NCBI GenBank assembly: GCA_021802965.1
Contig: JAJZQZ010000003.1
Location: 1 to 42,356, forward strand
DNA: 42,356 nucleotides
Direction: 5' to 3'
DNA from: Actinomycetes bacterium
Lineage (GTDB): Bacteria; Actinomycetota; Thermoleophilia; RBG-16-64-13
Of this stretch, positions 5,301-19,357 are shown piece after piece. Every line of letters starts with the position of its first letter. Position 1 is the stretch's first letter. The position numbers and the translations under genes are program-made. The notes under the pieces are model-generated. The model did not search any database and was not told where the DNA came from. It worked only from the letters and a program-made list of their open reading frames with translations.

Positions 5301-6631
5301 GCTCAGCCGCCGAAAAGACCCCTCGAGCGAACAGCGCGAAACCCGGCGCTCCGCGACTGCAACTGGCTCTCGATTTCGTCGACCTGCCGCGGGCCCTCAA
5401 GGTTGCCGAGGAGGCGGTGCTCGGCGGCGCGGACTGGCTGGAGGCCGGGACTCCGCTCATCAAGAGCGAGGGGCTGCAGGCAGTCCGGGCCCTGCGCGAC
5501 CGCTGGCCCGAACACATCGTCGTGGCCGACATGAAGACCATGGACGCCGGCCGAGCCGAGGTCGAGTACGCGGCTAAAGCGGGGGCCCGCGTGGTGGGGG
5601 TGCTGGGGCTGGCCTCCGACGCCACCATCCGCGAGTGCGTCGAAGCCGGTCGCAACTACGGAGCCGAGATCATCGTGGACATGATCGGCGTGGCCGACCC
5701 GGTCGCCCGCGCCCGGGAGGTCGAGGCCCTTGGCGCCTCCTACGTGGGCATCCACGTGGCCATCGACGAGCAGATGGCCGGCAAGACGCCCTTCGACATC
5801 CTCCGGCAGGTGGCCGCCGCGGTCTCCATCCCCGTGGCCGTCGCGGGCGGCATCAATTCCGAGACCGCCGGCGAGGCGGTCGAGGCCGGCGCAGCCATCG
5901 TCATCGTGGGCGGCGCCATCACGAAGGCCACCGATGCCACCGAGGCCACGCGCCTGATCAAGCACGCGATCGCCCACCGGGTATCGGTGAAGTCAGACTA
6001 CTTCGTCCGCGCCAGCGGGGACGATCTGCGCGAGGTGCTCCTGCGGGTCTCCGCCGCCAACGTATCCGATGCACTCCACCGCTCGGGCGACCTTCCCGGC
6101 ATCGTCGCTCGAACGCCGGGCGCCAAGATGGTCGGACGGGCCGTGACGGTCCGCACCTATCCCGGTGACTGGGCAAAACCGGTGGAGGCCATCGACGTCG
6201 CCGAGGAAGGCGACGTGATCGTCATCGACGCCGGCGGCGTGCTGCCCGCGGTGTGGGGCGAGCTGGCGACGAACTCAGCGATCCAAAGAGGCTTGGCGGG
6301 CGTCGTCATCGCCGGAGCTGCCCGTGACACGGGCGATATCCGCGAGCTGGGTTTTCCGCTCTTTTCCTCCCACGTCACGCCCACTGCCGGCGAGCCCAAG
6401 GGTTTCGGCGAGATCGGCGTGCCCATCCGCATCGGAGGGGTGACGGTGTCGCCGGGCGACTGGATCGTCGGCGACGACGACGGGGTCTGCGTCATACCCA
6501 AGGAGAAAGCGGTCGAGTACACCAATCGGGCGATGGACGTCCTCGAACGAGAGAACCGGCTGCGGGGCGAGATCCTGGAGGGCAGCACGCTGAGCCAGGT
6601 CGCCTACCTCCTCAAGTGGGAGAAGAAGTAG
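5297..6631 (+). CDS. Bifunctional 3-hexulose-6-phosphate synthase / RraA (HMG-aldolase-like) fusion protein
   Basis: N-terminal HPS/KGPDC barrel: LQLALD, WLEAGTPLIKSEG, ADMKTMDAG..E, VAGGI, IVGGAIT. C-terminal RraA fold: NVSDAL, GRAVTV, AVWGELA, GAARD, PGDWIVGDDDGVCVIP. ATG at 5297 overlaps the yjbQ stop. Confidence 0.92.
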   Translation: MSSAAEKTPRANSAKPGAPRLQLALDFVDLPRALKVAEEAVLGGADWLEAGTPLIKSEGLQAVRALRDRWPEHIVVADMKTMDAGRAEVEYAAKAGARVVGVLGLASDATIRECVEAGRNYGAEIIVDMIGVADPVARAREVEALGASYVGIHVAIDEQMAGKTPFDILRQVAAAVSIPVAVAGGINSETAGEAVEAGAAIVIVGGAITKATDATEATRLIKHAIAHRVSVKSDYFVRASGDDLREVLLRVSAANVSDALHRSGDLPGIVARTPGAKMVGRAVTVRTYPGDWAKPVEAIDVAEEGDVIVIDAGGVLPAVWGELATNSAIQRGLAGVVIAGAARDTGDIRELGFPLFSSHVTPTAGEPKGFGEIGVPIRIGGVTVSPGDWIVGDDDGVCVIPKEKAVEYTNRAMDVLERENRLRGEILEGSTLSQVAYLLKWEKK

Positions 6632-6635
6632 CCCC

Positions 6636-7535
6636 CTAGGGCACCTTGACGAGCACGTTGTCGATGAGCCGTGTCGCGCCGAAGAACACCGCGGCGGCCA
6701 CGACGACCTCGCCTCTGACGACCTGCGGCTCTCTGAGGTCGTCCGCGGATACGACCTCGACGTAATCCACGCGGTCCGGGGGATCCTCGGCCAGGACCTT
6801 CAGGGCCGCGTCCTTGACAGCCCCGGCGTCGCGCTCACCCGACTCGAGGGCGTGTTGCGCAGCCCGGAGCGCCCGGTTCAGGATGGGAGCCCTCGCCCGC
6901 TGCTGCGGGGTGAGGTAGGCGTTGCGTGAGCTCATGGCCACGCCGTCGGCGTCGCGCACGATGGGGCATACGACCACCTCCACGCCCAGATCGAGGTCTG
7001 CGGCCATCCGACGGACGATCAGGGCCTGCTGGGCGTCCTTCTGCCCGAAGTAGGCGCGGTCCGGTCGACAGAGCGCGAACAGCTTGGTCACCACCGTCGC
7101 CACCCCGCGGAAGTGCCCAGGCCGGGCTCGTCCACACAGCACCTCCGACAAGCCCTCGACGTCGACCCAGGTGCAATGCCCCGGCGCGTACATCTCCTCT
7201 GCCGACGGGTGGAAGACGAGGTCCACTCCCTCGCCCGCCGCCAAGGAGAGGTCGCGATCCAGGTCGCGCGGGTAGCGGTCCAGGTCCTCGGCCGGGCCGA
7301 ACTGGGTGGGGTTGACGAAGATGGACATCACCACCAGGTCGTTCTCGACGCGCGCCCGCCGCGCGAGCGATAGGTGGCCCTCGTGCAGGAACCCCATGGT
7401 CGGCACCAGTCCGACCGAAAAAGGGCGGCCCTGGGCGATGCCGGCCACCCGGGCCGCCTCGAGCCGGGCCCGAAGGCCGTCCTTGCTCTCCACGACCTCG
7501 GGAAGCGACGCCGTCCCTTCGGGTGCGACCGTCAT
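6636..7535 (-). CDS. panC: Pantoate--beta-alanine ligase
   Basis: VPTMGFLHEGHLSL, SIFVNPTQF, RPGHFRGVATVV, FGQKDAQQ, MSSRN and TRLIDN motifs. True start taken as ATG 7535 within the longer 641-aa ORF. Confidence 0.97.
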   Translation of the reverse strand: MTVAPEGTASLPEVVESKDGLRARLEAARVAGIAQGRPFSVGLVPTMGFLHEGHLSLARRARVENDLVVMSIFVNPTQFGPAEDLDRYPRDLDRDLSLAAGEGVDLVFHPSAEEMYAPGHCTWVDVEGLSEVLCGRARPGHFRGVATVVTKLFALCRPDRAYFGQKDAQQALIVRRMAADLDLGVEVVVCPIVRDADGVAMSSRNAYLTPQQRARAPILNRALRAAQHALESGERDAGAVKDAALKVLAEDPPDRVDYVEVVSADDLREPQVVRGEVVVAAAVFFGATRLIDNVLVKVP

Positions 7536-7549
7536 GCCGTCTTCACCGA

Positions 7550-8542
7550 CTACAGATCCTCGAGGGCGGGGGCACCGTGCAGACTCCAGGCACAGCGGAC
7601 CGCGCGCCGGATAGAGCTCGCGACGGCATCGGCCGCCGCGCAGCCCAGCTGGAAGACGGTCACCGGCCGAAGGCCGGCGGAGAGGACGAACACCGCGTCG
7701 CCATCGATCGGGGTGTGGACGGGGCTGATCGCCCGGGCAAGCCCATCGTGCGCCATCCGCGCCACCTGACCGCACTGAGTCTTGTCCAGACGGGCGTCGG
7801 TGGCCACCACGGACAAGGTGGTGTGCTCGGCGCGAGCGTCGAAGCGGGGATGGTCCGAGACCGTCAGAACATAGGCATGGCTGTCGAGGAATCGCCCGTC
7901 GCGAACGGCGGCTCCCTCCCTGACCTCCTCGGGGCCCAGCCCGCCCGTGCGCGCCCCGGCCAGGATGGATCCATCCTCCGCCAGCACATCGCCGAACGCG
8001 TTGCAGACGGTCATGGCGGTGACGGTGACGCCACCCGGAAGAGCGACGCTGGCGACGCCGAAGCCGGACTTCATCCAGCCCTCCTCGCCCAGCATCTTGC
8101 CGACCGTCGCACCCGTTCCCACGCCCACCGACCCCTCCTCCACGGAGGCCGCCGCGGCCGCTGCCGCCCGATATCCGTCCTCGGCCCGGGGACGGCTCGT
8201 CGCATGGCCGAGTCCGAGATCGTAGATGACAGCGGCCGGGACCAGCGGGATCCGCCCGAAGGGGGTCTGGTAGCCGAAGCCCCGCTCCTCGAGATAGCGG
8301 ACCACGCCGTCGGCGGCGGCCAGGCCGAAAGCGCTCCCGCCGGCGAGCACCACCGCGTGAAGCTCGTTGACCGACGAGAACGGCGAGAGCAGATCCGTCT
8401 CGCGTGTCCCGGGTCCGCCGCCGCGCACTTCGAGGGACCCGACCACGCCGCGGGGAGCCACGACCACGGTGCAGCCGGTCCCGCCCACCGCGTCGGTGGC
8501 ATGCCCGACCAAGATCCCCTCGACCCCGATGAGGGCACTCAT
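7550..8542 (-). CDS. P1/S58 family (DmpA/ArgJ-like, ThnT-like) self-processing hydrolase
   Basis: VGHAT..GTGCTV, RGGGPGTRETDLL, GGSAFGL.AADGV, GSVGVGTGA, HTTLSVVATDA, AHDGLARAI.P.HT..DGD motifs. Confidence 0.92.
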   Translation of the reverse strand: MSALIGVEGILVGHATDAVGGTGCTVVVAPRGVVGSLEVRGGGPGTRETDLLSPFSSVNELHAVVLAGGSAFGLAAADGVVRYLEERGFGYQTPFGRIPLVPAAVIYDLGLGHATSRPRAEDGYRAAAAAAASVEEGSVGVGTGATVGKMLGEEGWMKSGFGVASVALPGGVTVTAMTVCNAFGDVLAEDGSILAGARTGGLGPEEVREGAAVRDGRFLDSHAYVLTVSDHPRFDARAEHTTLSVVATDARLDKTQCGQVARMAHDGLARAISPVHTPIDGDAVFVLSAGLRPVTVFQLGCAAADAVASSIRRAVRCAWSLHGAPALEDL

Positions 8543-8622
8543 CCCGGCGACCCTCCGCCACGAGGGGCGCTCATCGGAGGTGCCTGGCCCGCTGGTCGCG
8601 GAGCATCACTCTTCAGCACCGG

Positions 8623-10443
8623 CTACCGCGTGTTCTTGCGCAGGCCGTCGAGGAACTCGAAGTTCGACTTGGTGTCCTTGATCTTGTCGATGAGGAGCTC
8701 GATCGCCGCGTTCGGGTCGAGCGCGTGCAGCACGGAACGGAGCTTCCACACCATCTTGGACTCCGCGCCCTCCATGAGCAGCTCTTCCTTGCGCGTACCG
8801 CTCTTCTCGATGTCGATGGCCGGGAAGATCCGCTTGTTCGCCAGCTGGCGGGTCAGGTGGACCTCCCAGTTGCCCGTGCCCTTGAACTCCTCGAAGATGA
8901 CCTCGTCCATGCGCGAGCCCGTCTCGACGAGCGCCGTCGCGAGGATGGTCAGCGATCCGCCCTCCTCGATGTTGCGCGCGGCTCCGAAGAACTTCTTCGG
9001 CGGATACAGGGCGGTCGAGTCGACCCCGCCCGAGAGGATGCGCCCGGAGGCCGGCGCCGCCAGGTTGTACGCCCGCGCGAGCCGGGTGATGGAGTCCAGG
9101 AGCACCACGACGTCCTTGCCCACTTCCACCAAGCGCTTGACCCGCTCGAGCACCAGCTCGGTGACCTGCAGGTGGTTCTCCGAGGGCTGATCGAAGGTGG
9201 ATGAGACCACCTCCCCGTTGACCGAGCGCTCCATGTCGGTGACCTCCTCCGGGCGTTCGTCCACGAGCAGAACCAGGAGATGTACCTCGGGGTTGTTCTC
9301 GGCGATGGAGTTCGCTATCTCCTTCAAGATGGTGGTCTTGCCCGCCTTGGGAGGCGACACGATGAGACCGCGCTGGCCTTTCCCGAGCGGGCACACCAGG
9401 TCCATGATCCGGGGCGCTATGCGGTTCGGCTGGGTCTCGAGGCGCAGGCGCTGGTCGGGGAACAGCGGCGTGAGCTGCTCGAAGTTGGGCCGGTGCCGGG
9501 CCTGCTCGGGGTCGAGGCCGTTGACGGTCTGGATCTTGAGCAAAGCGTGGTACTTCTCGTTGTCCTTGGGCGTGCGCACCTGACCGGTGATCTCGTCGCC
9601 GCGGCGCAGCTTGAAGCGACGGATCTGCGAGAGAGACACGTAGATGTCGCTGTCGGACTGGGTGTACCCCTGCGTCCGCAGGAAGCCGAAGCCATCCGGA
9701 AGGACGTCGAGCAGTCCCGTGCGGTACTGCACCCCGCGGTCGGCCACCTGCTCCGACAGGATCTTCACGATCAAATCCTGCTTCGAGTACTTGCGGTAGT
9801 TCTTGATGCCCAGCTCCGACGCCACCACGTGCAGGTCGGACACGAGCCTCGGCTCGGTCTCGATGAGGTCGCCCCGCTCCCGGCTGTCGATCCGTTCCTG
9901 CCCCTCCGCGAGCGGGGGCCGGTCCGGGCGAGGCGGCCGCTGGGGCCTCTCCGGGCGCTCGAGCTGCTCAGGAAGCTCGGGGCGCACGGGTCGCCCCGCC
10001 TCCCCAGAGGCCGGGCGGTCAGAGGCCCCCACAGACGGACCTGCCGCCGCGCGGGCGACGGGAGCCTCAGAGCGCGCGACCGGAGCGTCGGCGCGTGTGG
10101 CGGGAGCCTCCCGGCCCGCGGCAGGGGGCTCAGCGCTCGCGGCAGGAGCGGGACCTTCGCCGTTCGTCGGTTCGGCGCGGGGCGTTCGGGCAGGACGCGC
10201 CGCCGCAGGGCGACGAGCGGGCGCGCGACGCGGTGCCGGCGCGCCGGCCTCGGCCTTCGCGGACGCCGCCGGTGCCGGAGGTTCGGAGGGAGCCTCCTTC
10301 TCAGGGGTGAGGGTAGCGGCGACGTCGCCGTCAGGGCCGGCGGGTTCGGCGGCGGAAGGTTCGGGCGCCACCACGGTGGTGGCGCCGTCCTCCGCGGTGG
10401 TCTTTTCTGTCTCTTCTACGGTCGGTTCCATGTCTGTTATCAC
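8623..10443 (-). CDS. rho: Transcription termination factor Rho with a long low-complexity N-terminal extension
   Basis: [63 protein letters not shown] and SGTRKEELL motifs. Start GTG 10443 (AGGAG upstream) or ATG 10431. Confidence 0.97.
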
Positions 10444-10493
10444 GTTCTCCTGGGGGTCATGGGTCGTGGGGGTCGTACCCCGGGTCGTCTTGT

Positions 10494-11528
10494 TCACAGC
10501 CGGATCTCCCGGCGTTCGTCTGAGAAAAGGTGGATAGTGTCGACGAAGCGCACGATCCGGCAGCGGGTACACATGGTCAGGGTGTGACTCCGGGCGCCCT
10601 CTCGAAAATAGTCCACTCCACGCAAGAAGTCGCCGCCGGTGACACCGGTGGCCGCGAAGACCACATCGCCGAGGACCAGGTCGTGCGTGTGCAGCACCAT
10701 CTCGATATCGTCGATGCCATGCTGCGCCGCCTTCTCGACCTCTCGGCGAGAGAGCGGCCACAGCTTTGCTTGGATCTGCCCGCCGAGGCAGCGCATAGCG
10801 GCTGCGGTCATCACTCCTTCGGCTGCACCCCCGATCCCGATGTACAGGTGGTCGCCCGTCCCGTCGACGGCAGCCGCTATCGAAGCCGTGATGTCACCGT
10901 CAGCGATGAGCTTGATACGTGCCCCCGCCTTGCGGATATCGGCCACCAAGCTCTCGTGTCGGGGCCGGTCGAGCATGATCACGGTGAGGTCGGCCACCGA
11001 CCGGTCGTAGGCCTGCGCGACTGCCATCAGATTGTCGGCTACCGGAGCCTCGATGTCGATGCTACCGGCGGCACGAGGACCGACGACCAGCTTCTGCATG
11101 TACATGTCGGGCAGGGAGAGGATCTGGCCGGGCGCGCCTACCACGAGGACGCTCATGGCCCCGCCCTGCCCGCGGGCCACCGTGTCGGTGCCCTCGAGGG
11201 GGTCGACCGCGATGTCGCAGTCCACGCTGCCGCTTCCGATGCGATCGCCCACGCGGATTCCTCCCGCGCTGCCTTCCTCACGTTCTCCGATCACCACCCG
11301 GGCGGTCACCGGCAGCTCTCGCAGAGCCGCCCGCATCGCTTCCGCGGCGGCCTCGTCGGCGACCACGCTGTCCCCTTGACCCATGAAGCGTCCCGCGGCG
11401 AGCGCCGCCGCTTCGGTCACACGGGTGAACTCGGCGCACAAGCATGGAGGGCCCATGCCGCTCTGGTCGACCTCCCCTGGGCTCGTCGACATCTCCCGGC
11501 TCCCTCTCCCGCCTCGGATCTCGCTCAC
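10494..11528 (-). CDS. glpX: Fructose-1,6-bisphosphatase class II
   Basis: [51 protein letters not shown] and FAATGVTGG motifs. Start may instead be ATG ~11457. Confidence 0.93.
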
Positions 11529-12478
11529 GCCACACCCGCCGCCGCTCGTGATTCAGACGCGGCGATGCGCTCGTACAGGGCATCGACGACGAGACCCACA
11601 GTGTCGTCGATGTTGACGTTCTCGATCAACAACGCACCTTCCTCAGCCGCGCGACCGATGATGAACTCCTGGATGCGCCGTATCTCTTCGAAGTTGGCCA
11701 GGTACCGACGCACGGGCCGCCGCCCGATGGTCTCGCGCTCGCGCACCAGGAAGTGGCTGCGGTGCAACTCGGCGTCGCGCACCACGACTATCATCGGCAG
11801 AACGACCGCGTTCTCCTTACCCGTCAAGGGCAGAAACCCCGGGACCACATGGACTCCCTCCACGATCAGGCTCGTCCCTTCCTTGACCGCCCGGTCGACG
11901 ATCGCGGCCAGGCCGACGTTCACCATCTCCACCTGCTCGACGAAGCCCACCACGTGCGGGTCCAGGTACGTCCCCATCGGCGCGCGAATGGCCTTGCCCG
12001 CGTCGAACGACGAGAAGTGGATCTCCGGCATGAGGGCTCGGGAGAAGAAGGTCCTCATCACCTGACGGATAGAGTCCGTGGAGATGATCCTGACGATGCC
12101 CATGCGGCTGGCAAGCTGGGTGGCGAGAGTGCTCTTGCCGACCCCGGTGGCGCCGCCGATCAAGATGATGACCGGCCGATCTTCGAGACCGAGTCGGTAC
12201 CACTTCTCGTAGCGCTGCAGGTAGTCCTGTCCTTCCATCTCCCCGAGGATGCGGGCGACGAATCCCTGGAGCTCGTCGATGCTCACACGGAGCACGCTGC
12301 GGCTGCGAAGCTCGCGTTCGACCTCCTGCGCCACCCGATAGGCCCGGTCAGGGGATAAGCCCGTCGCCGTCAGGGATTGCGCGAGGAGGCCCTTTGAAAA
12401 AGGGATCCCGTGCTGCTGGTTGACAATCTGGATCTGATCGCCACCCTCAGCGCTCGTCCTCTCGCTGCTCTCATCCAC
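11525..12478 (-). CDS. pgk2: 2-phosphoglycerate kinase (ATP-cone + P-loop)
   Basis: PFSKGLLAQSL ATP-cone-like N-terminus; ILIGGATGVGKSTLA, ISTDSIR, SSF, IVEGVH..PG, HRSHF..R and YL.NF..IR.IQ motifs; adjacent to cpgS. Confidence 0.9.
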   Translation of the reverse strand: MDESSERTSAEGGDQIQIVNQQHGIPFSKGLLAQSLTATGLSPDRAYRVAQEVERELRSRSVLRVSIDELQGFVARILGEMEGQDYLQRYEKWYRLGLEDRPVIILIGGATGVGKSTLATQLASRMGIVRIISTDSIRQVMRTFFSRALMPEIHFSSFDAGKAIRAPMGTYLDPHVVGFVEQVEMVNVGLAAIVDRAVKEGTSLIVEGVHVVPGFLPLTGKENAVVLPMIVVVRDAELHRSHFLVRERETIGRRPVRRYLANFEEIRRIQEFIIGRAAEEGALLIENVNIDDTVGLVVDALYERIAASESRAAAGVA

Positions 12479-13943
12479 GGCGTTCGTAGCGCTCCTGTGC
12501 TATCTCCGCCAACCGGCGGCACGTCTCGGCGAGATCGCCTTCCTGGGCCGGCGAGACCTCCCGGGGCTCGTTGTCCATGAAGACCACCGGCAGCTCTCGC
12601 CGTTCGGCTTCCACAGCCACCATGTCGATGGCCGCGGCCTTTATCTCGGTCAGGAACAGCTCCACATCGGTCGACTCCGCCGCCCGCAGATCGTCAGCCA
12701 GAGCACGCCGATCCGAGAGGTTGCCCGACCACAACCGGACAGTGCATCCATGCTCCTCTTCGAGGTGGCGCTTGAGCAAAGGTGCCTGGACACTCGGCGC
12801 GGTCGAGAAACAGGCCACTCTCCGCCCGGACACGTCCTGCGCCGGCCGATGCCGGAACACCACAGGGATGACCGGGATACCCGGCTTCTCCTGCGCCACC
12901 GCCGTCATCAAGTCTCGCACGGCACCAACGTCTGCAAGGGGCGCCTCCGCCATCGTCAAGACAACCGCATCGCTGATCAACACCCGGTACGTCCCCAGGT
13001 ACCCCGCCAGCTGCCCGCGAGGCTGATGGGCCCCGGCGACCAGTAGGCGGGCATCGGTGGCCACCGGCGGGATCGACGAACCGCTCCCTTCGAAGACCAC
13101 CATCCCGGCGCCCAGCTCGTTCGCCCGCAGGGCGCCTTCCGCCACGTTCGAGACCAACGGCTCCCCGGCGAGCCCACCGCCACACCGGCGGCATCCGACG
13201 GTGAGGACCCGGCTGAGGACGGCGTCCTCGAAGTGGTCGGAAGCGGCGTGACGACCCGCCCGACTCCACCTGAGTAACTCTTCGCTGCCCAGGGATACCG
13301 CGCTGCCATCTATCACTTCAGGTTCGGCCGGACCGCCTCGTCCCATGGCGACGACCACCACGGCCGGAGAAGCCCCGCCACCGCTGCGGGAGCCGGCTCC
13401 GGCTTCAGCGGTCTCACCCAGAAGCCTGGCCAGATACCCGCTGATCGCCGTCTTGCCGACACGTTTGCCTGTGCCGATGACAGAAAGCGACGGGGATGTG
13501 GCGATGCGGTCGAGCCGAGGGGGTGTGAAACGGAAGTCGGACCCTTCGTACGTGACGTTCCGGGCAAGAGTGTGGCTGATCAGCCGGAACCTACCCGGGT
13601 ACCCTACCACAGGCTCGTCGCTCGCGTCAACGACCACCTCGGGCCGGTACGAGTCGAGAGCCGCCGTCAACGCCGCGACCTGATCGGGGCCCGAGACGAC
13701 GGGCAGGTTATATATCCTCTCCGCCTCTGTCGCCCAGCGCCCCGGGTCGCTCGGCGCGACCTTCTCGGTCCCGCCGAGGAACACAGCCGCCAGGAAGCGA
13801 TAGCGCGGCGCCAGCTGCTCGAGAGCGTCCACCACGACGGGAGGGTAGTGCTCCCCGTCGATGAGGACCACCGCCGGGCGAGGGGAGCCCGGGTGTCCCG
13901 GCGCGGACCCGCCGCCGGCGCCCTCGCCCTCCGGGCTGCTCAC
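12471..13943 (-). CDS. cpgS: Cyclic 2,3-diphosphoglycerate synthetase
   Basis: LIDGEHYPPVV, GGTEK, SDEPV, GTGKRVGKTA, VAMGRGGP.EPE, HAASDHFEDA, GCRRCGGGLAG, EGSG..IPP and TEIKAAAID motifs, matching the archaeal cDPGS family. Confidence 0.92.
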   Translation of the reverse strand: MSSPEGEGAGGGSAPGHPGSPRPAVVLIDGEHYPPVVVDALEQLAPRYRFLAAVFLGGTEKVAPSDPGRWATEAERIYNLPVVSGPDQVAALTAALDSYRPEVVVDASDEPVVGYPGRFRLISHTLARNVTYEGSDFRFTPPRLDRIATSPSLSVIGTGKRVGKTAISGYLARLLGETAEAGAGSRSGGGASPAVVVVAMGRGGPAEPEVIDGSAVSLGSEELLRWSRAGRHAASDHFEDAVLSRVLTVGCRRCGGGLAGEPLVSNVAEGALRANELGAGMVVFEGSGSSIPPVATDARLLVAGAHQPRGQLAGYLGTYRVLISDAVVLTMAEAPLADVGAVRDLMTAVAQEKPGIPVIPVVFRHRPAQDVSGRRVACFSTAPSVQAPLLKRHLEEEHGCTVRLWSGNLSDRRALADDLRAAESTDVELFLTEIKAAAIDMVAVEAERRELPVVFMDNEPREVSPAQEGDLAETCRRLAEIAQERYERRG

Positions 13944-14758
13944 AGGTCGCTTATCACCCGGTCGAGGTGGGCGTCATGCCGTATGTAGGTCGACGCCGCG
14001 GCGTCGAACTCGACGACCACCTCGCCGCCGTGGAAGGGGTACCGTCGAGTGACCGTCACCCTCTCCCCTTCGATGTCGATCACGTTGTAGCAGGGCTTCG
14101 TGGTGCCCCGCAGGCGCAGCGTGGAGACCGTGCCCGTGTTGACGATGAACATGTTCTCCAAGCGCCAGGCGTAGGGCACGTGCTTGTGTCCCGACAAGAC
14201 CAGGTCGACCCCGCAGCCGACGAGGACCTCCAGAACGTCGCCGGCGTCGTGCACCACGTTGCGCTCGCGTCCCGTGCCGGGGATGGGCAGCAGGTGATGG
14301 TGAAGGGCGAATATCTTGAAGTCGCCGGGCTGCTCCATGAGCGCGTCGCGGATCCACGGGTACCTATGGCGCCCGATGCGGCCGTTGTCCAGGTCGGGCT
14401 CGGTAGAGTCCACCCCCACCACGGTGCACCCGCCCGTGCGGATGACCGAGTCGCGGCGCTCGAAAAGCGTCTCGAAGTGCATGTAGCCCACATTGCGGCT
14501 GTCGTGGTTACCCGGTACGACCATGGTCAGGGGGCACTGCAGACGGTCGAGGTACTCCTTGGCCTCGCGGTACTCCTGCCGGAAGCCCATGTTGGTGAGG
14601 TCTCCGGTGACGACCACCAGATCGGGCGCGAGGTCGTTGACCTCGACGAGGGCCCGGTTGAGCATGTTGGGCACGAAGTACTGCGAGCCCGCATGGATAT
14701 CCGAAAGGTGCACGATGCGCATGTGACGCACCTTCGGGCTCCGCGGCTCGACGCTCAT
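13940..14758 (-). CDS. Calcineurin-like metallophosphoesterase (CpdA/Icc-like)
   Basis: All five metal-binding motifs present: SDIH, TGDLT, PGNHD, LHHH and SGHKH. Overlaps the cpgS start. Confidence 0.92.
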   Translation of the reverse strand: MSVEPRSPKVRHMRIVHLSDIHAGSQYFVPNMLNRALVEVNDLAPDLVVVTGDLTNMGFRQEYREAKEYLDRLQCPLTMVVPGNHDSRNVGYMHFETLFERRDSVIRTGGCTVVGVDSTEPDLDNGRIGRHRYPWIRDALMEQPGDFKIFALHHHLLPIPGTGRERNVVHDAGDVLEVLVGCGVDLVLSGHKHVPYAWRLENMFIVNTGTVSTLRLRGTTKPCYNVIDIEGERVTVTRRYPFHGGEVVVEFDAAASTYIRHDAHLDRVISDL

Positions 14759-14762
14759 CGCC

Positions 14763-15725
14763 TCACTCCACCCGCGGTCCGCCGCTCGACGCCCCGCTCA
14801 GCCCTTCCCGGACGCCGTTCGCCAGGGAATTCCCAAGAGAACGCGCCAGGTCGCCCGCGCGGGCGCCGAAGAGCAGGGGCAGAATACCGCCCGACGACTC
14901 GGGCTCCATGTACCGCACCCCGTAGTCGCCGGTATCCAGCTGGGCCAGCCGGGCGGCCTCGTCCAGGGCGTCCGCGTAGGAGCCGACCTTGTCGATCAGG
15001 CCCAGCTGCAGCGCTTCCTCGCCGGGGTACGTCAGTCCGTTCGCCAGCGCCGCCACCTGCTTCTCGTCGAGGTTCTGCCGCCCCTCGGCCACGTCGGCGA
15101 TGAACCGCTGGTAGATCTTCTCCATCTGCGCGGACAGGATGGCTTTCTCCTGGGCGGTCATCTCTCTCGCAGGACTGCCGATGTCCTTGTACTCCCCCTT
15201 GGTGATCACCGTGTAGCCGACGCCTATCTTCTCGAAAAGCCCCTGCAGGTCCTGCGCGGTGAGGATCACCCCGATGCTGCCCACCTCGGATGACGGTGCC
15301 GCGACGATGGAATCCGCCGCGCTGGAGAAGTAATACGCACCCGACGCGACCACATCGGCCACCGACACGACCACCGGTTTCTGCATCTCGCGGACCGCCT
15401 GGTAGATCTCCCACGAGGCGGCCGGGCTGCCGCCCGGGCTGTTGACCCGCAAGACCACGGCGTCGATGCTCGAGTCGGCGTCGGCGTCGCGCAGGGTCTC
15501 CGCGGCCCACACCGGGTCGATGCCCCCGCCGCCGTAGAGCGAAGCCTGAGAGTCGGCCGAGATGACACCGTCGAGGCGCACCACGCCGACGGTGCCGCTA
15601 CTGCCCCAACTTGCTCCACCGCGCCCGCCGCCGTCGCCGAAGTAGAAGAGCAGGCCCAAGAGGGCCGCGTACATCACGGCGATGACGACGCCCACGATCA
15701 AGACGATCTTCCAGCCTTTCGACAC
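14763..15725 (-). CDS. sppA: Signal peptide peptidase SppA (S49, short form)
   Basis: N-terminal TM segment; LRVNSPGGS, ASGAYY, GSIGV, KGEYKD and GLIDKVG motifs. Confidence 0.94.
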   Translation of the reverse strand: MSKGWKIVLIVGVVIAVMYAALLGLLFYFGDGGGRGGASWGSSGTVGVVRLDGVISADSQASLYGGGGIDPVWAAETLRDADADSSIDAVVLRVNSPGGSPAASWEIYQAVREMQKPVVVSVADVVASGAYYFSSAADSIVAAPSSEVGSIGVILTAQDLQGLFEKIGVGYTVITKGEYKDIGSPAREMTAQEKAILSAQMEKIYQRFIADVAEGRQNLDEKQVAALANGLTYPGEEALQLGLIDKVGSYADALDEAARLAQLDTGDYGVRYMEPESSGGILPLLFGARAGDLARSLGNSLANGVREGLSGASSGGPRVE

Positions 15726-17003
15726 CTACAGCACCCGTATGGTCGCGGGCCGACTCTTCACGCAAGACAACGCGGCCACCTTCTCGATGGCGGCGAAGAA
15801 GCCGCGCTCCACGGTGGGGTGGGTGATGACCATCAGCTCGGCTTCGTCACCCTGGCCCTTCTGGATCATGCTCTCGATCGAGACGTCGTGATCGCCGAAG
15901 ATGGAGGCGATCTGGGCCAGCACTCCCGCGCGGTCCTCCACCTTGAAGCGCGTGAAGAACGCGGAGCGCATCTCGCCGTCGGGGAACCGGTCGAGGTCCC
16001 GTCGGCAGGAACAGTTCTGGAGGAAACCGGCGGAATCGGTCCCGACGATGTTCATGATGTCGCTGACCACCGCGGTGGCCGTCGGCGGACCACCGGCCCC
16101 GGGCCCGGTGAGCATGATCTCGTCGATCGTGTGGCCGCGGAGATATACGGCGTTGTACGAGCCGTTGATAGACGCAAGCAGGTGGCCCTCCGGCACGAGA
16201 GCCGGGTGCACGCGGACGTTCACACGCCCGTCGACCAGGCGGGCGGCTCCGATGAGCTTGACTACGAAACCGAAGTCCTTGGCGTACTGGACGTCGTCCA
16301 GGGTGACGTCCTGGATGCCCTCGTAGGTCACGTCGGCCATGGTCACTCGGGTGCGGAACGCGATGGAAGCGAGGATGGCCATCTTGGCGGCGGCGTCGCC
16401 GCCGCCCACGTCAGCGGTGGGATCGGCCTCGGCGTAGCCCAGCTCCTGGGCCTTCTTCAGGGTCTCGGCATAGTCGCCCTCTCCACGATACAGAGCCGTG
16501 AGGATGTAGTTGGTCGTGCCGTTGACGATGCCGTACACGGTGTGGAGGTCGGCGGCGATCATCCCCTCACGCATGACCTTGATCACCGGGATGGCTCCCC
16601 CGACCGAGGCCTCGAAGCGGATCTGGCGCCCCAGTTGCGCGGCCAGTTCGAACAGCCCCGCGCCGCGGTTGGCAAGGAGCTGCTTGTTGGCGGTCACCAC
16701 GTCTCGCCCGCCTCGCAGGGCCGCCTCGACGAAGGTGAACGCCCAGTCGGTCCCACCGATGAGCTCCACCACGATCGAGACGGCCGGATCGTCGAGCACG
16801 CGCTTGAAGTCGTCGGTGAAGAGCTCGGCGGGGGCGTCGACCCCCGCGCGACTGAAGTCCTTCTCGACGATATGCGCCACCCGCAGGTCGATCCCGGTCA
16901 GGTCCAGGATCGCGTCGTGCTCCTGCTCTATCACCCTGTAGACGTTCGACCCGATGGTGCCGAAGCCCAGCAGGCCGACGCGCACCGCGTTCGCCTCCGC
17001 CAT
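15726..17003 (-). CDS. hom: Homoserine dehydrogenase with C-terminal ACT domain
   Basis: GLLGFGTIG, VVTANK, FEASVGGAIP, GIVNGTTNYIL, AQELGYAEADPTADVGG.DAAAK, GPGAG and ACT DRAGVLAQI motifs. Confidence 0.97.
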   Translation of the reverse strand: MAEANAVRVGLLGFGTIGSNVYRVIEQEHDAILDLTGIDLRVAHIVEKDFSRAGVDAPAELFTDDFKRVLDDPAVSIVVELIGGTDWAFTFVEAALRGGRDVVTANKQLLANRGAGLFELAAQLGRQIRFEASVGGAIPVIKVMREGMIAADLHTVYGIVNGTTNYILTALYRGEGDYAETLKKAQELGYAEADPTADVGGGDAAAKMAILASIAFRTRVTMADVTYEGIQDVTLDDVQYAKDFGFVVKLIGAARLVDGRVNVRVHPALVPEGHLLASINGSYNAVYLRGHTIDEIMLTGPGAGGPPTATAVVSDIMNIVGTDSAGFLQNCSCRRDLDRFPDGEMRSAFFTRFKVEDRAGVLAQIASIFGDHDVSIESMIQKGQGDEAELMVITHPTVERGFFAAIEKVAALSCVKSRPATIRVL

Positions 17004-17012
17004 GGACGCCTC

Positions 17013-18332
17013 CTAGCCGTGCAACGGACGCTGTTCGGCCACCATGTCGGCATAGCTCTCGCGTTCGACGATCACGCGCGCCACACCGTCACGCACCAGC
17101 AGCACCGCCGCCCGCGGATTGCCGTTGTAGTTCGAAGCCATCGAGAAGAAATAGGCGCCGGTCACAGGGGTCACGAGGATGTCGCCCACCTGCGGTCTCG
17201 CGATGAGGGCGTCCTTGACGAGGATGTCGCTGCTCTCGCAATGCTTGCCGGCGACCGTGACCGTGGTGTCCGCGGGGTCCTCCGCGCGGTTCGCGATCAT
17301 GGCCTCGTACACCGCCCCGTAGAGCATCGGTCGCATGTTGTCACTCATGCCACCGTCGACACTCACGTACGTACGGATGCCCGGCACTTCCTTGATGTTG
17401 CCCACCCGATACGCGGTCACGCCCGCTTTGGCCACGACCGAGCGACCCGGCTCGACCAGCACCCGCGGCATGGGCAGGCCCACCCGCTCCATCTCCTGTC
17501 GTACGCCCTCGACCTTGCCCGCCACGTACTCCTCGATGCTCATGGGGGTGTCTTCGCCGGTGTAGCGGATCCCGAGCCCGCCCCCGATGTTGAGATAGCG
17601 GCACTCGAACCCGTCGCGGTCGCGCGCCTCCTTCAGGAGGTCGACCAGGACCGAGATGGCGGTGCGGAAACCCTCGATCTCGAAGATCTGACTGCCTATG
17701 TGCGCGTGCAGCCCCACGAGGTCAAGATGGGGCGCGGCGAGGGTCCGGCGGATCGCTTCCCCCGCATGCCCCTCAGCCAAGCCGAACCCGAACTTCGAGT
17801 CGAGCTGCCCGGTCTGGATGTAGTGGTGCGTGTGAGCTTCCACGCCCGGGGTGATGCGGAGCAGGACCTTCTGCCGGCGGTCGCGCTCGGCGGCCATGCT
17901 CTCGAGCAGCCCGATCTCGTCGAAGCTGTCGACCACCACGTAGCCGACGCGCTCGTCCAAGGCATAGGTGAGCTCTCGGGGCGTCTTGTTGTTGCCATGG
18001 AGGAAGATGCGCTCGGGCTCGATCCCGGCCGCCAGGGCGGTGTACAGCTCGCCGCCGCCGGACACGTCGATCGAGAGCCCCTCCTCGGCGATCAGCTGGC
18101 AGACGGCGATCGTGCAGAAGGCCTTGCTCGCGTAGATGACCTCGAAGTCGTCGGTGCGCTCACGGAAGGCGGCCATGAACCGGCGGCATTGGTCGCGCAG
18201 CGTCTTCTCTTCGTAGACCATGAGGGGTGTGCCGTGCTCGGCCACCAGATCGACCATGTCACAGCCGTCGATCTCCAGGTGCCCCGCGGCGTTGTGAGTG
18301 GCGTTGACGGGGTAGATGAGAGTATGGGTCAT
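17013..18332 (-). CDS. lysA: Diaminopimelate decarboxylase
   Basis: YASKAF, SGGEL, HGNNK, HAHIGSQI, NIGGG, EPGRS, GKHCESSD, GAY and MASNYN motifs; ATG at 18332. Confidence 0.97.
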   Translation of the reverse strand: MTHTLIYPVNATHNAAGHLEIDGCDMVDLVAEHGTPLMVYEEKTLRDQCRRFMAAFRERTDDFEVIYASKAFCTIAVCQLIAEEGLSIDVSGGGELYTALAAGIEPERIFLHGNNKTPRELTYALDERVGYVVVDSFDEIGLLESMAAERDRRQKVLLRITPGVEAHTHHYIQTGQLDSKFGFGLAEGHAGEAIRRTLAAPHLDLVGLHAHIGSQIFEIEGFRTAISVLVDLLKEARDRDGFECRYLNIGGGLGIRYTGEDTPMSIEEYVAGKVEGVRQEMERVGLPMPRVLVEPGRSVVAKAGVTAYRVGNIKEVPGIRTYVSVDGGMSDNMRPMLYGAVYEAMIANRAEDPADTTVTVAGKHCESSDILVKDALIARPQVGDILVTPVTGAYFFSMASNYNGNPRAAVLLVRDGVARVIVERESYADMVAEQRPLHG

Positions 18333-18416
18333 TGGCGCTCCCGCAGCAGAATGTGCGCTGACACGGTACCATACGCCCACCCGGCCTTGGGCATCCCGCG
18401 GAGGACTGCTCCCCTT

Positions 18417-18425
18417 TGCTAGAAT
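18417..18425 (+). promoter_or_regulatory. Extended -10 promoter (TGcTAGAAT) for the 18438 gene-hpt operon; very short leader
   Basis: TGCTAGAAT ends 12 nt before ATG 18438, and there is no SD sequence. Confidence 0.5.
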
Positions 18426-18437
18426 GAGTCTCACAGC

Positions 18438-18806
18438 ATGAGCGAGGAGACACCCACCTTCGCGTACTACCGCGGCGCCAAGCCGCCCCGATTCGCCACC
18501 CGCACCGAGCTCGAGGCCGCCCTCATCCTCGACTACCATCGGGTACCCTGGGAGTACGAACCGCGTACCTTCATCCTCGAGAAGGACGCCCAGGGCAACA
18601 TCGTCGAAGCGTTCACCCCGGACTTCTACCTGCCCGATCTGGATCTCTACATCGAGGTCACCCAGATGAAGCAGTCCCTGGTGACCACCAAGAACCGCAA
18701 GGTGCGCCGCCTGCGCGAGCAGTACCCCGAGATCCGCATCAAGCTGCTGTACAAGCACGACTTCGTCCAGCTGGCGAAGAAGTTCGACCTCGCGCCTCCC
18801 CGATGA
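18438..18806 (+). CDS. Small PD-(D/E)XK nuclease-fold hypothetical protein
   Basis: WEYEP, FTPDFYLP and YIEVT motifs; strong GC3 codon bias; ATGA overlap with hpt. Confidence 0.8.
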   Translation: MSEETPTFAYYRGAKPPRFATRTELEAALILDYHRVPWEYEPRTFILEKDAQGNIVEAFTPDFYLPDLDLYIEVTQMKQSLVTTKNRKVRRLREQYPEIRIKLLYKHDFVQLAKKFDLAPPR

Positions 18807-19357
18807 GCACCGAGGCGAGCCGCGGCCTCGTCGGCGACCCGTACCTGACAGCCGAGGCCCTGGCGCGGCGCGTGGCCGAACTCGGGGCCGAGATCACCCG
18901 TGACCACCGGGGGACCGACCTGCTCCTGGTATCGGTCCTCAAGGGAGCCCTCTTCTTCATGGCCGACCTCGCGCGGGCCATCGATCTGCCCCTCGAGATG
19001 GATTTTATGGCGATCACCTCCTACGAGATAGACAAGCGGGCCCGGCAGGGCGGAGGGCACGCCGCCATCAGGTTCCTGAAGGACTTGGACAAGCCCATAC
19101 AGAGCAGGAACGTGCTCATCGTGGAGGACATCATCGATACCGGCCTGACCCTGCACTACATCATGCGCAGCCTCTCCCTGCGCGAACCACTCTCCCTCGA
19201 AGTCTGCACCCTGTTCGACCGTCCGTACCGGCGTCTCGCCGACATCCCGGTCAAATACGTGGGCTTCACGGTGCCCGACGATTTCTTCGTGGGCTACGGC
19301 TTCGACTACCGCCAATTGCACCGCAACCTGCCCTACGTGGCTCACCTCAACATATGA
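18803..19357 (+). CDS. hpt: Hypoxanthine phosphoribosyltransferase
   Basis: VLKGALFFMADL, VLIVEDIIDTGLT (PRPP motif) and FFVGYGFDY...RNLPY motifs. Confidence 0.93.
   Translation: MSTEASRGLVGDPYLTAEALARRVAELGAEITRDHRGTDLLLVSVLKGALFFMADLARAIDLPLEMDFMAITSYEIDKRARQGGGHAAIRFLKDLDKPIQSRNVLIVEDIIDTGLTLHYIMRSLSLREPLSLEVCTLFDRPYRRLADIPVKYVGFTVPDDFFVGYGFDYRQLHRNLPYVAHLNI

Follow-up and report, generated by a model that had tools for sequence, protein, structure and literature searches.

A metallophosphoesterase gene linked to cpgS in Actinomycetota as a candidate for cyclic 2,3-diphosphoglycerate hydrolysis

The cpgS locus

The stretch of DNA analysed here, called the window below, comprises 42,356 nucleotides (nt) of contig JAJZQZ010000003.1 (assembly GCA_021802965.1) from an Actinomycetes bacterium of the Thermoleophilia. 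On its minus strand lies an intact open reading frame (ORF) of 272 amino acids with an ATG start (13940..14758, stop included), encoding a metallophosphoesterase (MPE) of the group termed clade A below. Directly downstream follow cpgS (12471..13943, minus strand), which codes for a 490-residue orthologue of cyclic 2,3-diphosphoglycerate (cDPG) synthetase, and the gene of a 2-phosphoglycerate kinase (2PGK) with 317 amino acids (11525..12478, minus strand), overlapping the end of cpgS by 8 nt. An earlier note on this DNA had described an intact calcineurin-like phosphoesterase whose stop codon overlaps the start codon of cpgS, and had proposed it as the enzyme of cDPG turnover. The description was confirmed by the ORF, the match to PF00149, the metal-binding motifs and the sequence itself. 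As judged from gene order, the link between MPE and cpgS is strongly conserved and partly independent. We regard the MPE as a well-founded but unproven candidate cDPG hydrolase, and the phosphate-related context of its relatives sharpens this hypothesis.

The overlap was read directly from the sequence. The plus strand reads tcac at 13940..13943 and the minus strand GTGA, in which the GTG start of cpgS occupies 13943-13941 and the TGA stop of the MPE gene 13942-13940. This presupposes the use of the first in-frame start of cpgS. Distant relatives show similarity from about residue 20-24 and close ones from residue 4-7; since the close relatives align that far, the long form is favoured and the N-terminal extension is probably translated. 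With phmmer, the product matched the solved cDPG synthetase of Methanothermus fervidus (PDB 8ORK) with E 5.6e-100, over residues 20-482 of the query and 3-452 of the chain. Its relatives fall into the precomputed Pfam family PF27272, and their source names are 2,3-diphosphoglycerate synthetase. The 2PGK contains ATP-cone and P-loop domains and matched NCBIfam NF003259 with E 5e-94 and 315 bits, under the cut-off of 343. In a scan of positions 8000-19000 for promoters and terminators the counts were at the level of shuffled sequence, and nothing was detected between MPE and cpgS. No RNA data set was listed for positions 11400-15800, and two metatranscriptome runs from the study behind the best-matching DNA data set contributed no reads there, an outcome without bearing on expression.

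The phosphoesterase and its family

The MPE protein of 30.8 kDa contains no predicted membrane segment (maximum Kyte-Doolittle hydropathy over 19 residues 1.45) and, by its hydropathy profile, no N-terminal signal-like stretch. It matched Pfam PF00149 (Metallophos) with 75.8 bits (cut-off 21.5) and E 7.7e-21 over residues 13-195, covering positions 1-191 of the 191 in the profile. All five metallophosphoesterase motifs are present (D20-I-H22, G52-D53, G83-N84-H85-D86, H153-H155 within HHH, and G190-H-K-H193) and were invariant across an alignment of 51 MPE sequences. The AlphaFold model (pLDDT 91.4, pTM 0.90) matched 427 PDB chains at E <= 0.001 with Foldseek. Each of the 47 PDB rows listed was, by title, either of the phosphoesterase fold (phosphodiesterases, purple acid phosphatases, SMPDL3, Mre11, PhoD) or the non-catalytic Vps29, and the two-sheet sandwich of the calcineurin-like superfamily was found in the model and in its PDB matches. 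With all defining features tested being present, the MPE is a member of the calcineurin-like metallophosphoesterase superfamily (PF00149). Translation may start at M1 or M13, since relatives align only from residue 9-15. The data are best explained by a gene product that is predicted to be a soluble, cytoplasmic two-metal phosphohydrolase.

In addition to the metal ligands, the family has motifs of its own. PDLxxGxIGR, HHHLLPxPGTGRERN, DAGD, GHKHVP, RLRG and YN were invariant in 51/51 members, whatever their genomic context. The invariant residues R130, R164, R166, K192 and R217 fall within these family-specific motifs, and such cationic residues would fit a small polyanionic substrate. At E <= 1e-30 the subfamily is of modest size, with 227 clusters in a set of 1.84 billion representatives. 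A search of the ESM Atlas with the MPE returned unnamed metallophosphoesterase clusters only.

A quick IQ-TREE tree was calculated from 105 MPEs. In clade A, which has a support of 88 in the Shimodaira-Hasegawa-like approximate likelihood ratio test (SH-aLRT), every row has cpgS as a neighbour (87/87). The adjacency within this clade spans Thermoleophilia, Rubrobacteraceae, Coriobacteriia and Aquicultor. Clade A is set apart by no more than five positions (S25, Y27, R35, V206 and F251), the first three of them just after motif I. Clade B (6 rows, support 99) shares about 50% identity with the window protein; five of its genes lie elsewhere and one, in locus L117, is convergent to cpgS. The archaeal sequences stand outside both clades. 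As a side observation, the clade-B gene directly follows a gene for a heavy-metal (copper-type) P-type ATPase in 3/6 loci (L026, L118, L119).

Linkage of the phosphoesterase gene and cpgS in Actinomycetota

Conserved linkage across genomes had been set in the earlier note as the test of its proposal, and it was found. Among close relatives of the same family, the MPE gene stands directly upstream of cpgS, followed by 2PGK, in 19/20 loci; it is also directly upstream of cpgS in 5/5 loci from two other families of the class. A pattern scan with one genome per species gave 583 cpgS-encoding stretches, of which the 80 most similar were kept, a choice favouring Actinomycetota. In these best 80 of 583 loci the MPE gene was directly upstream of cpgS in 64 and downstream in the same operon in 1, and no MPE gene was detected within the flanks of the other 15. 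By record title, the 64 linked loci belong to Thermoleophilia, Gaiellales, Rubrobacteraceae, Coriobacteriia, Aquicultor or Acidimicrobiia, or are unclassified. The linkage is also seen once, independently, in an archaeon (L103), described below.

The spacing of the two genes was examined for 87 pairs lying on the same strand. In 31 of them cpgS has a potential start that shares 4 nt with the stop of the MPE gene, and in 16 one that shares 1 nt, so that one of the two overlaps is possible in 47/87. Between the MPE stop and the conserved block of cpgS, the median gap is 5 nt. In the Rubrobacteraceae, 2PGK was located elsewhere in the genome in 5/5 genomes checked, while MPE and cpgS remain adjacent. 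Hence the MPE-cpgS pair is the most stable part of the cluster. The linkage in Actinomycetota is more than chance.

Clean loss of the MPE gene with retention of cpgS and 2PGK was seen in four loci (L135, L077, L080, L028), and a clade-A MPE was never seen without cpgS. This asymmetry of loss would fit an accessory enzyme acting on the product of the pathway. In L028 (2121-8163), from the close relative G011, about 6 kb of other DNA lie between hom and cpgS in place of sppA and the MPE gene, and no MPE was detected anywhere in this genome (98% complete) at E <= 1e-10. A further record (L093) is titled 'uncultured archaeon'; its flanks, rho and hom, are bacterial, and the tree places its MPE within those of Actinomycetota. 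The label of this record is probably wrong.

Fused MPE-cpgS proteins were considered as Rosetta-stone evidence. PF27272 together with PF00149 or an MPE match was present in 24/120 long proteins listed, and these were not counted. All of the fused proteins are singletons with patchy and truncated cpgS parts; P0128 also shows a cpgS part. They are likeliest frameshifts or read-through in error-prone assemblies.

The co-occurrence of both genes was determined for 301 sampled genomes of the phylum (MPE at E <= 1e-20), and the tables for MPE and cpgS were cross-tabulated by hand. MPE was present in 174/301 and cpgS in 175/301 genomes. Both genes were found in 172 and neither in 124, with MPE only in 2 and cpgS only in 3, so that 296/301 genomes are concordant. 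The MPE-only genomes are G039, with a clade-B paralogue, and G296, with a completeness of 62%. The cpgS-only genomes are G058, with a clean sppA-cpgS-2PGK order without MPE, G224, in which the contig ends 70 nt past cpgS, and G307. Eleven of the 301 genomes are flagged as unpublished, all with both genes; minus those, the four counts are 161, 124, 2 and 3. Since adjacent genes are gained and lost jointly and kin are not independent, the pattern mostly restates the linkage.

Neighbouring genes in the window

The MPE gene is part of a tightly packed array on the minus strand, at the head of which stands hom for homoserine dehydrogenase (15726..17003; NF004976 E 1.7e-144). It is followed by the gene of an sppA-type signal peptide peptidase (14763..15725; TIGR00706 199.8 bits, cut-off 155.45), whose stop lies 4 nt before the MPE start. 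This sppA gene is found upstream of MPE in some relatives only. Downstream of 2PGK and overlapping its end by 4 nt lies glpX for a class II fructose-1,6-bisphosphatase (10494..11528; TIGR00330 299.6 bits, cut-off 259.3; PF03320 E 6e-114). In the window hom, sppA, 2PGK and glpX are packed as tightly as MPE and cpgS. Thus, the overlap alone is not specific to the MPE-cpgS pair; its conservation across lineages is.

The ORF at 8623..10761 (minus strand) forms a conserved downstream flank. From reading its translation, and not from a family search, we take it to be rho, the transcription termination factor. In most related loci tblastn gave matches of 60-88% identity downstream of the cluster. This putative Rho has 712 amino acids; about the first 300 residues are rich in proline, alanine, glutamate and arginine, and residues of about 290-712 match relatives.

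Relatives in Archaea and other bacteria

A separate arrangement of the genes was found in a metagenome-assembled genome (MAG) of Natronoplasma (L103). A MarR gene, cpgS (5926-7356), 2PGK (7310-8233), a CBS-domain gene (8226-8657) and a tandem MPE gene (8659-10152) lie on one strand with overlapping or abutting ends, in an order that differs from that in Actinomycetota. The tandem MPE of 497 amino acids is 42% identical to the window protein and stands far from clade A in the tree. The Natronoplasma operon is the best evidence that the association of MPE and cpgS is functional and not only inherited. The tandem protein has a degenerate second half (30% identity).

A strong MPE relative (42-52% identity) was present in 5/5 archaeal cpgS genomes tested. 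Among 151 genomes of the Methanobrevibacter phylum, to which the classical cDPG producers belong, both genes are present in 132, MPE alone in 6, cpgS alone in 8 and neither in 5; the genomes sampled contain 1-3 MPE relatives each, with 42-50% identity. Because both genes occur in 132/151 genomes and their positions differ among the matches listed, co-occurrence is nearly uninformative here. Among 151 genomes of the Methanolliviera phylum, MPE (E <= 1e-30) was found in 25 and cpgS in 4, and all 4 cpgS genomes have MPE.

In 8/13 loci of the Methanolliviera phylum the MPE gene lies between pstS and pstC of pstSCAB, or beside pstS and PhoU (L109, L123, L124, L127, L128, L132, L133, L134). These MPEs are about 50% identical to the window protein. 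The pst/PhoU phosphate-uptake operon is the most frequent archaeal context of the family. The archaeal relatives are taken as cytoplasmic, because motif I stands at their N-terminus. A cytoplasmic phosphoesterase inside a phosphate-uptake operon points to the mobilisation of an internal phosphate-containing compound. A literature search on the archaeal pst-MPE arrangement gave no archaeal match by title.

Cyclic 2,3-diphosphoglycerate synthetase homologues without a close MPE were observed in Bacillota, Anaerolineae and Neomarinimicrobiota. Five such genomes with cpgS, from bacteria outside the Actinomycetota, were searched: the three of Bacillota gave weak generic MPE matches only, and no MPE match was detected in the one genome each of Anaerolineae and Neomarinimicrobiota. 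Another hydrolase replacing the MPE beside cpgS, where the MPE is missing, was looked for and not found in the loci examined. In the Bacillota MAGs L041, L046 and L051, cpgS homologues (46-48% identity) are flanked on one side by the gene of a GntR or RpiR regulator and on the other by genes for a solute-binding protein and a fused ABC permease, with neither 2PGK nor MPE nearby. The Bacillota branch may thus have another role, perhaps linked to uptake. Three loci of another bacterial lineage (L074, L082, L102) have the order 2PGK-cpgS-ApgM-like gene (PF10143), with a CBS gene next in L074 and L082. In the Anaerolineae MAG L097 an iPGM-like gene follows cpgS.

Discussion

The linkage to cpgS, combined with the phosphate context of the relatives, favours a cDPG hydrolase. 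The MPE would work on the cDPG pathway encoded just downstream. According to a title cited in the literature, cDPG is a cyclic diphospho-P,P'-diester. As it is a cyclic pyrophosphate P,P'-diester, the bond to be cut is an anhydride. The earlier note had argued with the cleavage of cyclic phosphodiesters by this fold, which is beside the point for such a bond. In the accessible part of a preprint (bioRxiv 10.1101/2025.02.21.639460) the free energy of hydrolysis of the anhydride bond is given as about -16 kJ/mol.

As a candidate cytoplasmic cDPG hydrolase, the MPE would open this cyclic pyrophosphate diester and release stored phosphate, a function that we consider quite possible, if short of probable. 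The opening of the ring would yield 2,3-diphosphoglycerate (2,3-DPG), which would return to central metabolism by reversal of 2PGK or by a phosphatase, freeing phosphate. Synthase and hydrolase would be made together, and the net flux would be set by ATP and free phosphate. When free phosphate drops, the hydrolase would free the stored phosphate. In mesophilic bacteria cDPG would then be a phosphate and energy buffer, not a heat protectant. Enzymes of this fold are usually subject to competitive inhibition by phosphate. In the available parts of PMC10690619 and PMC1224877, cDPG is proposed as a store of phosphate, carbon and energy, and its hydrolase is described as inhibited by K+ and phosphate. 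A wider proposal is that the MPE subfamily is an unrecognised class of cytoplasmic hydrolases under phosphate-status control that mobilises organic phosphate stores, with the branch in cpgS-bearing Actinomycetota and Natronoplasma as cDPG hydrolase and cDPG as a mesophile buffer. We regard this combination as rather doubtful.

Several points weigh against cDPG as the substrate. The motif residues are invariant across cpgS-linked, pst-linked and other paralogues; because of this and of the mere five clade-A positions, a shared substrate other than cDPG is possible. In the Methanolliviera phylum 21/25 MPE-positive genomes are without cpgS. As the MPE family exceeds cpgS there, the whole family cannot be defined by cDPG. 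The turnover role put forward in the earlier note is supported in part, namely by the strong linkage in Actinomycetota. In the Methanobrevibacter phylum MPE and cpgS were apart among the matches listed. Paralogues of Methanobacteria were found in the order tRNA-guanine transglycosylase-NAC-MPE-NYN nuclease, beside PhoU (2 loci), and with an ABC binding protein and a glycosyltransferase (1 locus); the first order was assigned by Pfam in L113, and five other loci share gene sizes and order only. Tandem MPE forms of about 500 amino acids occur, by source names, in Thermococcus, Theionarchaea, Methanofastidiosia, Asgard archaea and Bipolaricaulota. Most of the linkage in Actinomycetota may descend from a single ancestral gene order within the syntenic region from hom to rho, so that the 87 clade-A rows are not 87 independent events. 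Synthase and hydrolase in one operon risk a futile cycle unless the hydrolase is regulated. Finally, the methanogen hydrolase is reviewed as membrane-bound in the available part of PMC1224877; the window MPE has no hydrophobic segment, and peripheral binding is possible.

Foremost among the rivals, a general phosphoesterase of phosphate starvation would act on another widespread substrate and stand beside cpgS merely as shared phosphate housekeeping. Examples of such substrates are 2',3'-cyclic nucleotides released when RNA is turned over, glycerophosphodiesters, the head groups of lipids (as for PlcP) and polyphosphate. The 8/13 archaeal loci with MPE in or beside pstS-pstC-pstA-pstB/PhoU, the absence of cpgS from most MPE-positive genomes of the Methanolliviera phylum and the motifs common to every context speak for it, as do the nearest solved relatives Rv0805 (E 2.1e-17) and GpdQ, which are diesterases, and the NYN-type RNase gene adjoining one Methanobacteria paralogue. 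SpdA and CpdA also matched weakly, but with 48.6 bits for SpdA (cut-off 400) and 42.2 bits for CpdA (cut-off 225) both fell far short of the cut-offs. A general esterase leaves unexplained that clade A is found next to cpgS only (87/87), that the MPE stays with cpgS after relocation of 2PGK, and that a separate archaeal operon joins cpgS, 2PGK, CBS and MPE genes. We consider this rival unlikely, if a serious contender. The linkage evidence for a cDPG hydrolase would equally suit a phosphatase that converts 2,3-DPG to 2- or 3-phosphoglycerate and drains the intermediate or finishes the breakdown after reversal of cpgS. The cDPG synthetase of M. fervidus is reversible according to the available part of PMC1224877, so that breakdown could in principle do without a ring-opening hydrolase. 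The fold also includes monoesterases, and purple acid phosphatases are among the structural matches. However, diesterases stand nearest to the MPE in both sequence and fold, and a 2,3-DPG phosphatase co-expressed with 2PGK would directly undo the reaction of this kinase; we judge it improbable.

An inherited neighbourhood without functional coupling would place the MPE gene in the conserved block hom ... sppA-MPE-cpgS-2PGK-glpX-rho, with co-occurrence by joint gain and loss. The hom and rho flanks are indeed syntenic in most Actinomycetota loci, the whole block is tightly packed in the window, and single deletions remove adjacent genes, so that the concordance of 296/301 genomes is not independent of adjacency. 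Yet sppA and glpX come and go and 2PGK is relocated in Rubrobacteraceae, and MPE and cpgS are still joined, 0-30 nt apart. The independent archaeal operon L103 and the clade-B MPE convergent to cpgS in L117 also argue against mere inheritance, which seems to us somewhat less probable still than the phosphatase. That the MPE is a physical partner or regulator of cDPG synthetase and not a free enzyme draws its sole support from the translational coupling. The invariance of all catalytic residues speaks for an active enzyme; cpgS is functional by itself in vitro, as stated in the available part of PMC10690619, and occurs without MPE in many lineages. This explanation is highly improbable.

In Actinomycetota the genes of cDPG synthesis travel with an MPE gene. 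In the available part of PMC10690619, cDPG is described as exclusive to hyperthermophilic methanogens, and papers with the term '3-diphosphoglycerate synthetase' were archaeal by title among the matches listed. In our cpgS search the top 8000 word-sharing candidates all had E <= 1e-10, and the named ones were bacterial among the 120 matches listed. The earlier note had known of no firmly assigned gene for cDPG degradation. In agreement with this, the literature searched, with sources accessible in part and subscription papers outside the search, contained no gene assigned to cDPG hydrolase and no mention of the bacterial operon. If the MPE is the hydrolase, a pathway gap of about 30 years would close, a handle for testing the bacterial use of cDPG as a phosphate or energy store would be at hand, and production strains for this extremolyte should be without the MPE gene. 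The placement of archaeal relatives in pst operons is a separate lead on archaeal phosphate starvation responses.

Comparison with known systems

The class III cyclic-nucleotide phosphodiesterases Rv0805 of M. tuberculosis and CpdA/Icc share fold and metal motifs with the MPE. Rv0805 was the best solved match by Foldseek (E 2.1e-17, TM 0.71; phmmer E 9e-10) at about 21% identity. In contrast to Rv0805 and CpdA, the MPE family has its own invariant motifs in the 51-row alignment, and the MPE does not reach the equivalog cut-off of CpdA/Icc (NF008359; 42.2 bits, cut-off 225) or the cut-off of the 2',3'-cyclic nucleotide phosphodiesterase SpdA (NF050112; 48.6 bits, cut-off 400). The best NCBIfam match, the anti-phage phosphoesterase DS9_1 (NF053862), was rejected with 74.1 bits (cut-off 420) over residues 124-207, aligned to 363-455 of 486. 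With scores far below the curated cut-offs, by which we classify here, the MPE is not in the CpdA, SpdA, LpxG or DS9 anti-phage families.

GpdQ, the glycerophosphodiesterase of Enterobacter aerogenes, was the best phmmer match among solved structures (E 4.9e-10; Foldseek E 6.5e-17) with 19% identity. It is a hexamer with a cap domain. As a diesterase that scavenges phosphate, it would match the pst context of the MPE relatives in Archaea. PlcP is a Pho-regulated cytoplasmic MPE phospholipase C of bacteria that is induced by phosphate limitation. The Methanobacteria paralogue next to a family-2 glycosyltransferase (L115) recalls the plcP-agt pairs. PlcP acts on a lipid, whereas the invariant cationic residues of the MPE would fit a small anion better.

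LpxH/LpxG, ADPRibase-Mn and UshA are MPEs that cleave pyrophosphate diesters. They hydrolyse R-O-P-O-P-O-R' anhydrides, the bond type of cDPG. With LpxG the MPE gave a weak N-terminal match (residues 8-88, E 1.2e-8, 34.7 bits, cut-off 350). The substrates of these enzymes are nucleotide-linked, and they have no genomic context in common with the MPE.

We know of no sequence of the purified Methanothermobacter hydrolase for comparison. In 1992, Sastry and co-workers are said to have obtained an apparent size of about 33 kDa for this enzyme, compared with 30.8 kDa for the window MPE. The cDPG hydrolase activity of Methanothermobacter thermautotrophicus, a subject also of work by van Alebeek and co-workers, converts cDPG to 2,3-DPG, the same reaction as proposed for the MPE. 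In the available parts of PMC1224877 and PMC10690619, this K+- and phosphate-inhibited hydrolase is discussed as mobilising a store of phosphate and carbon.

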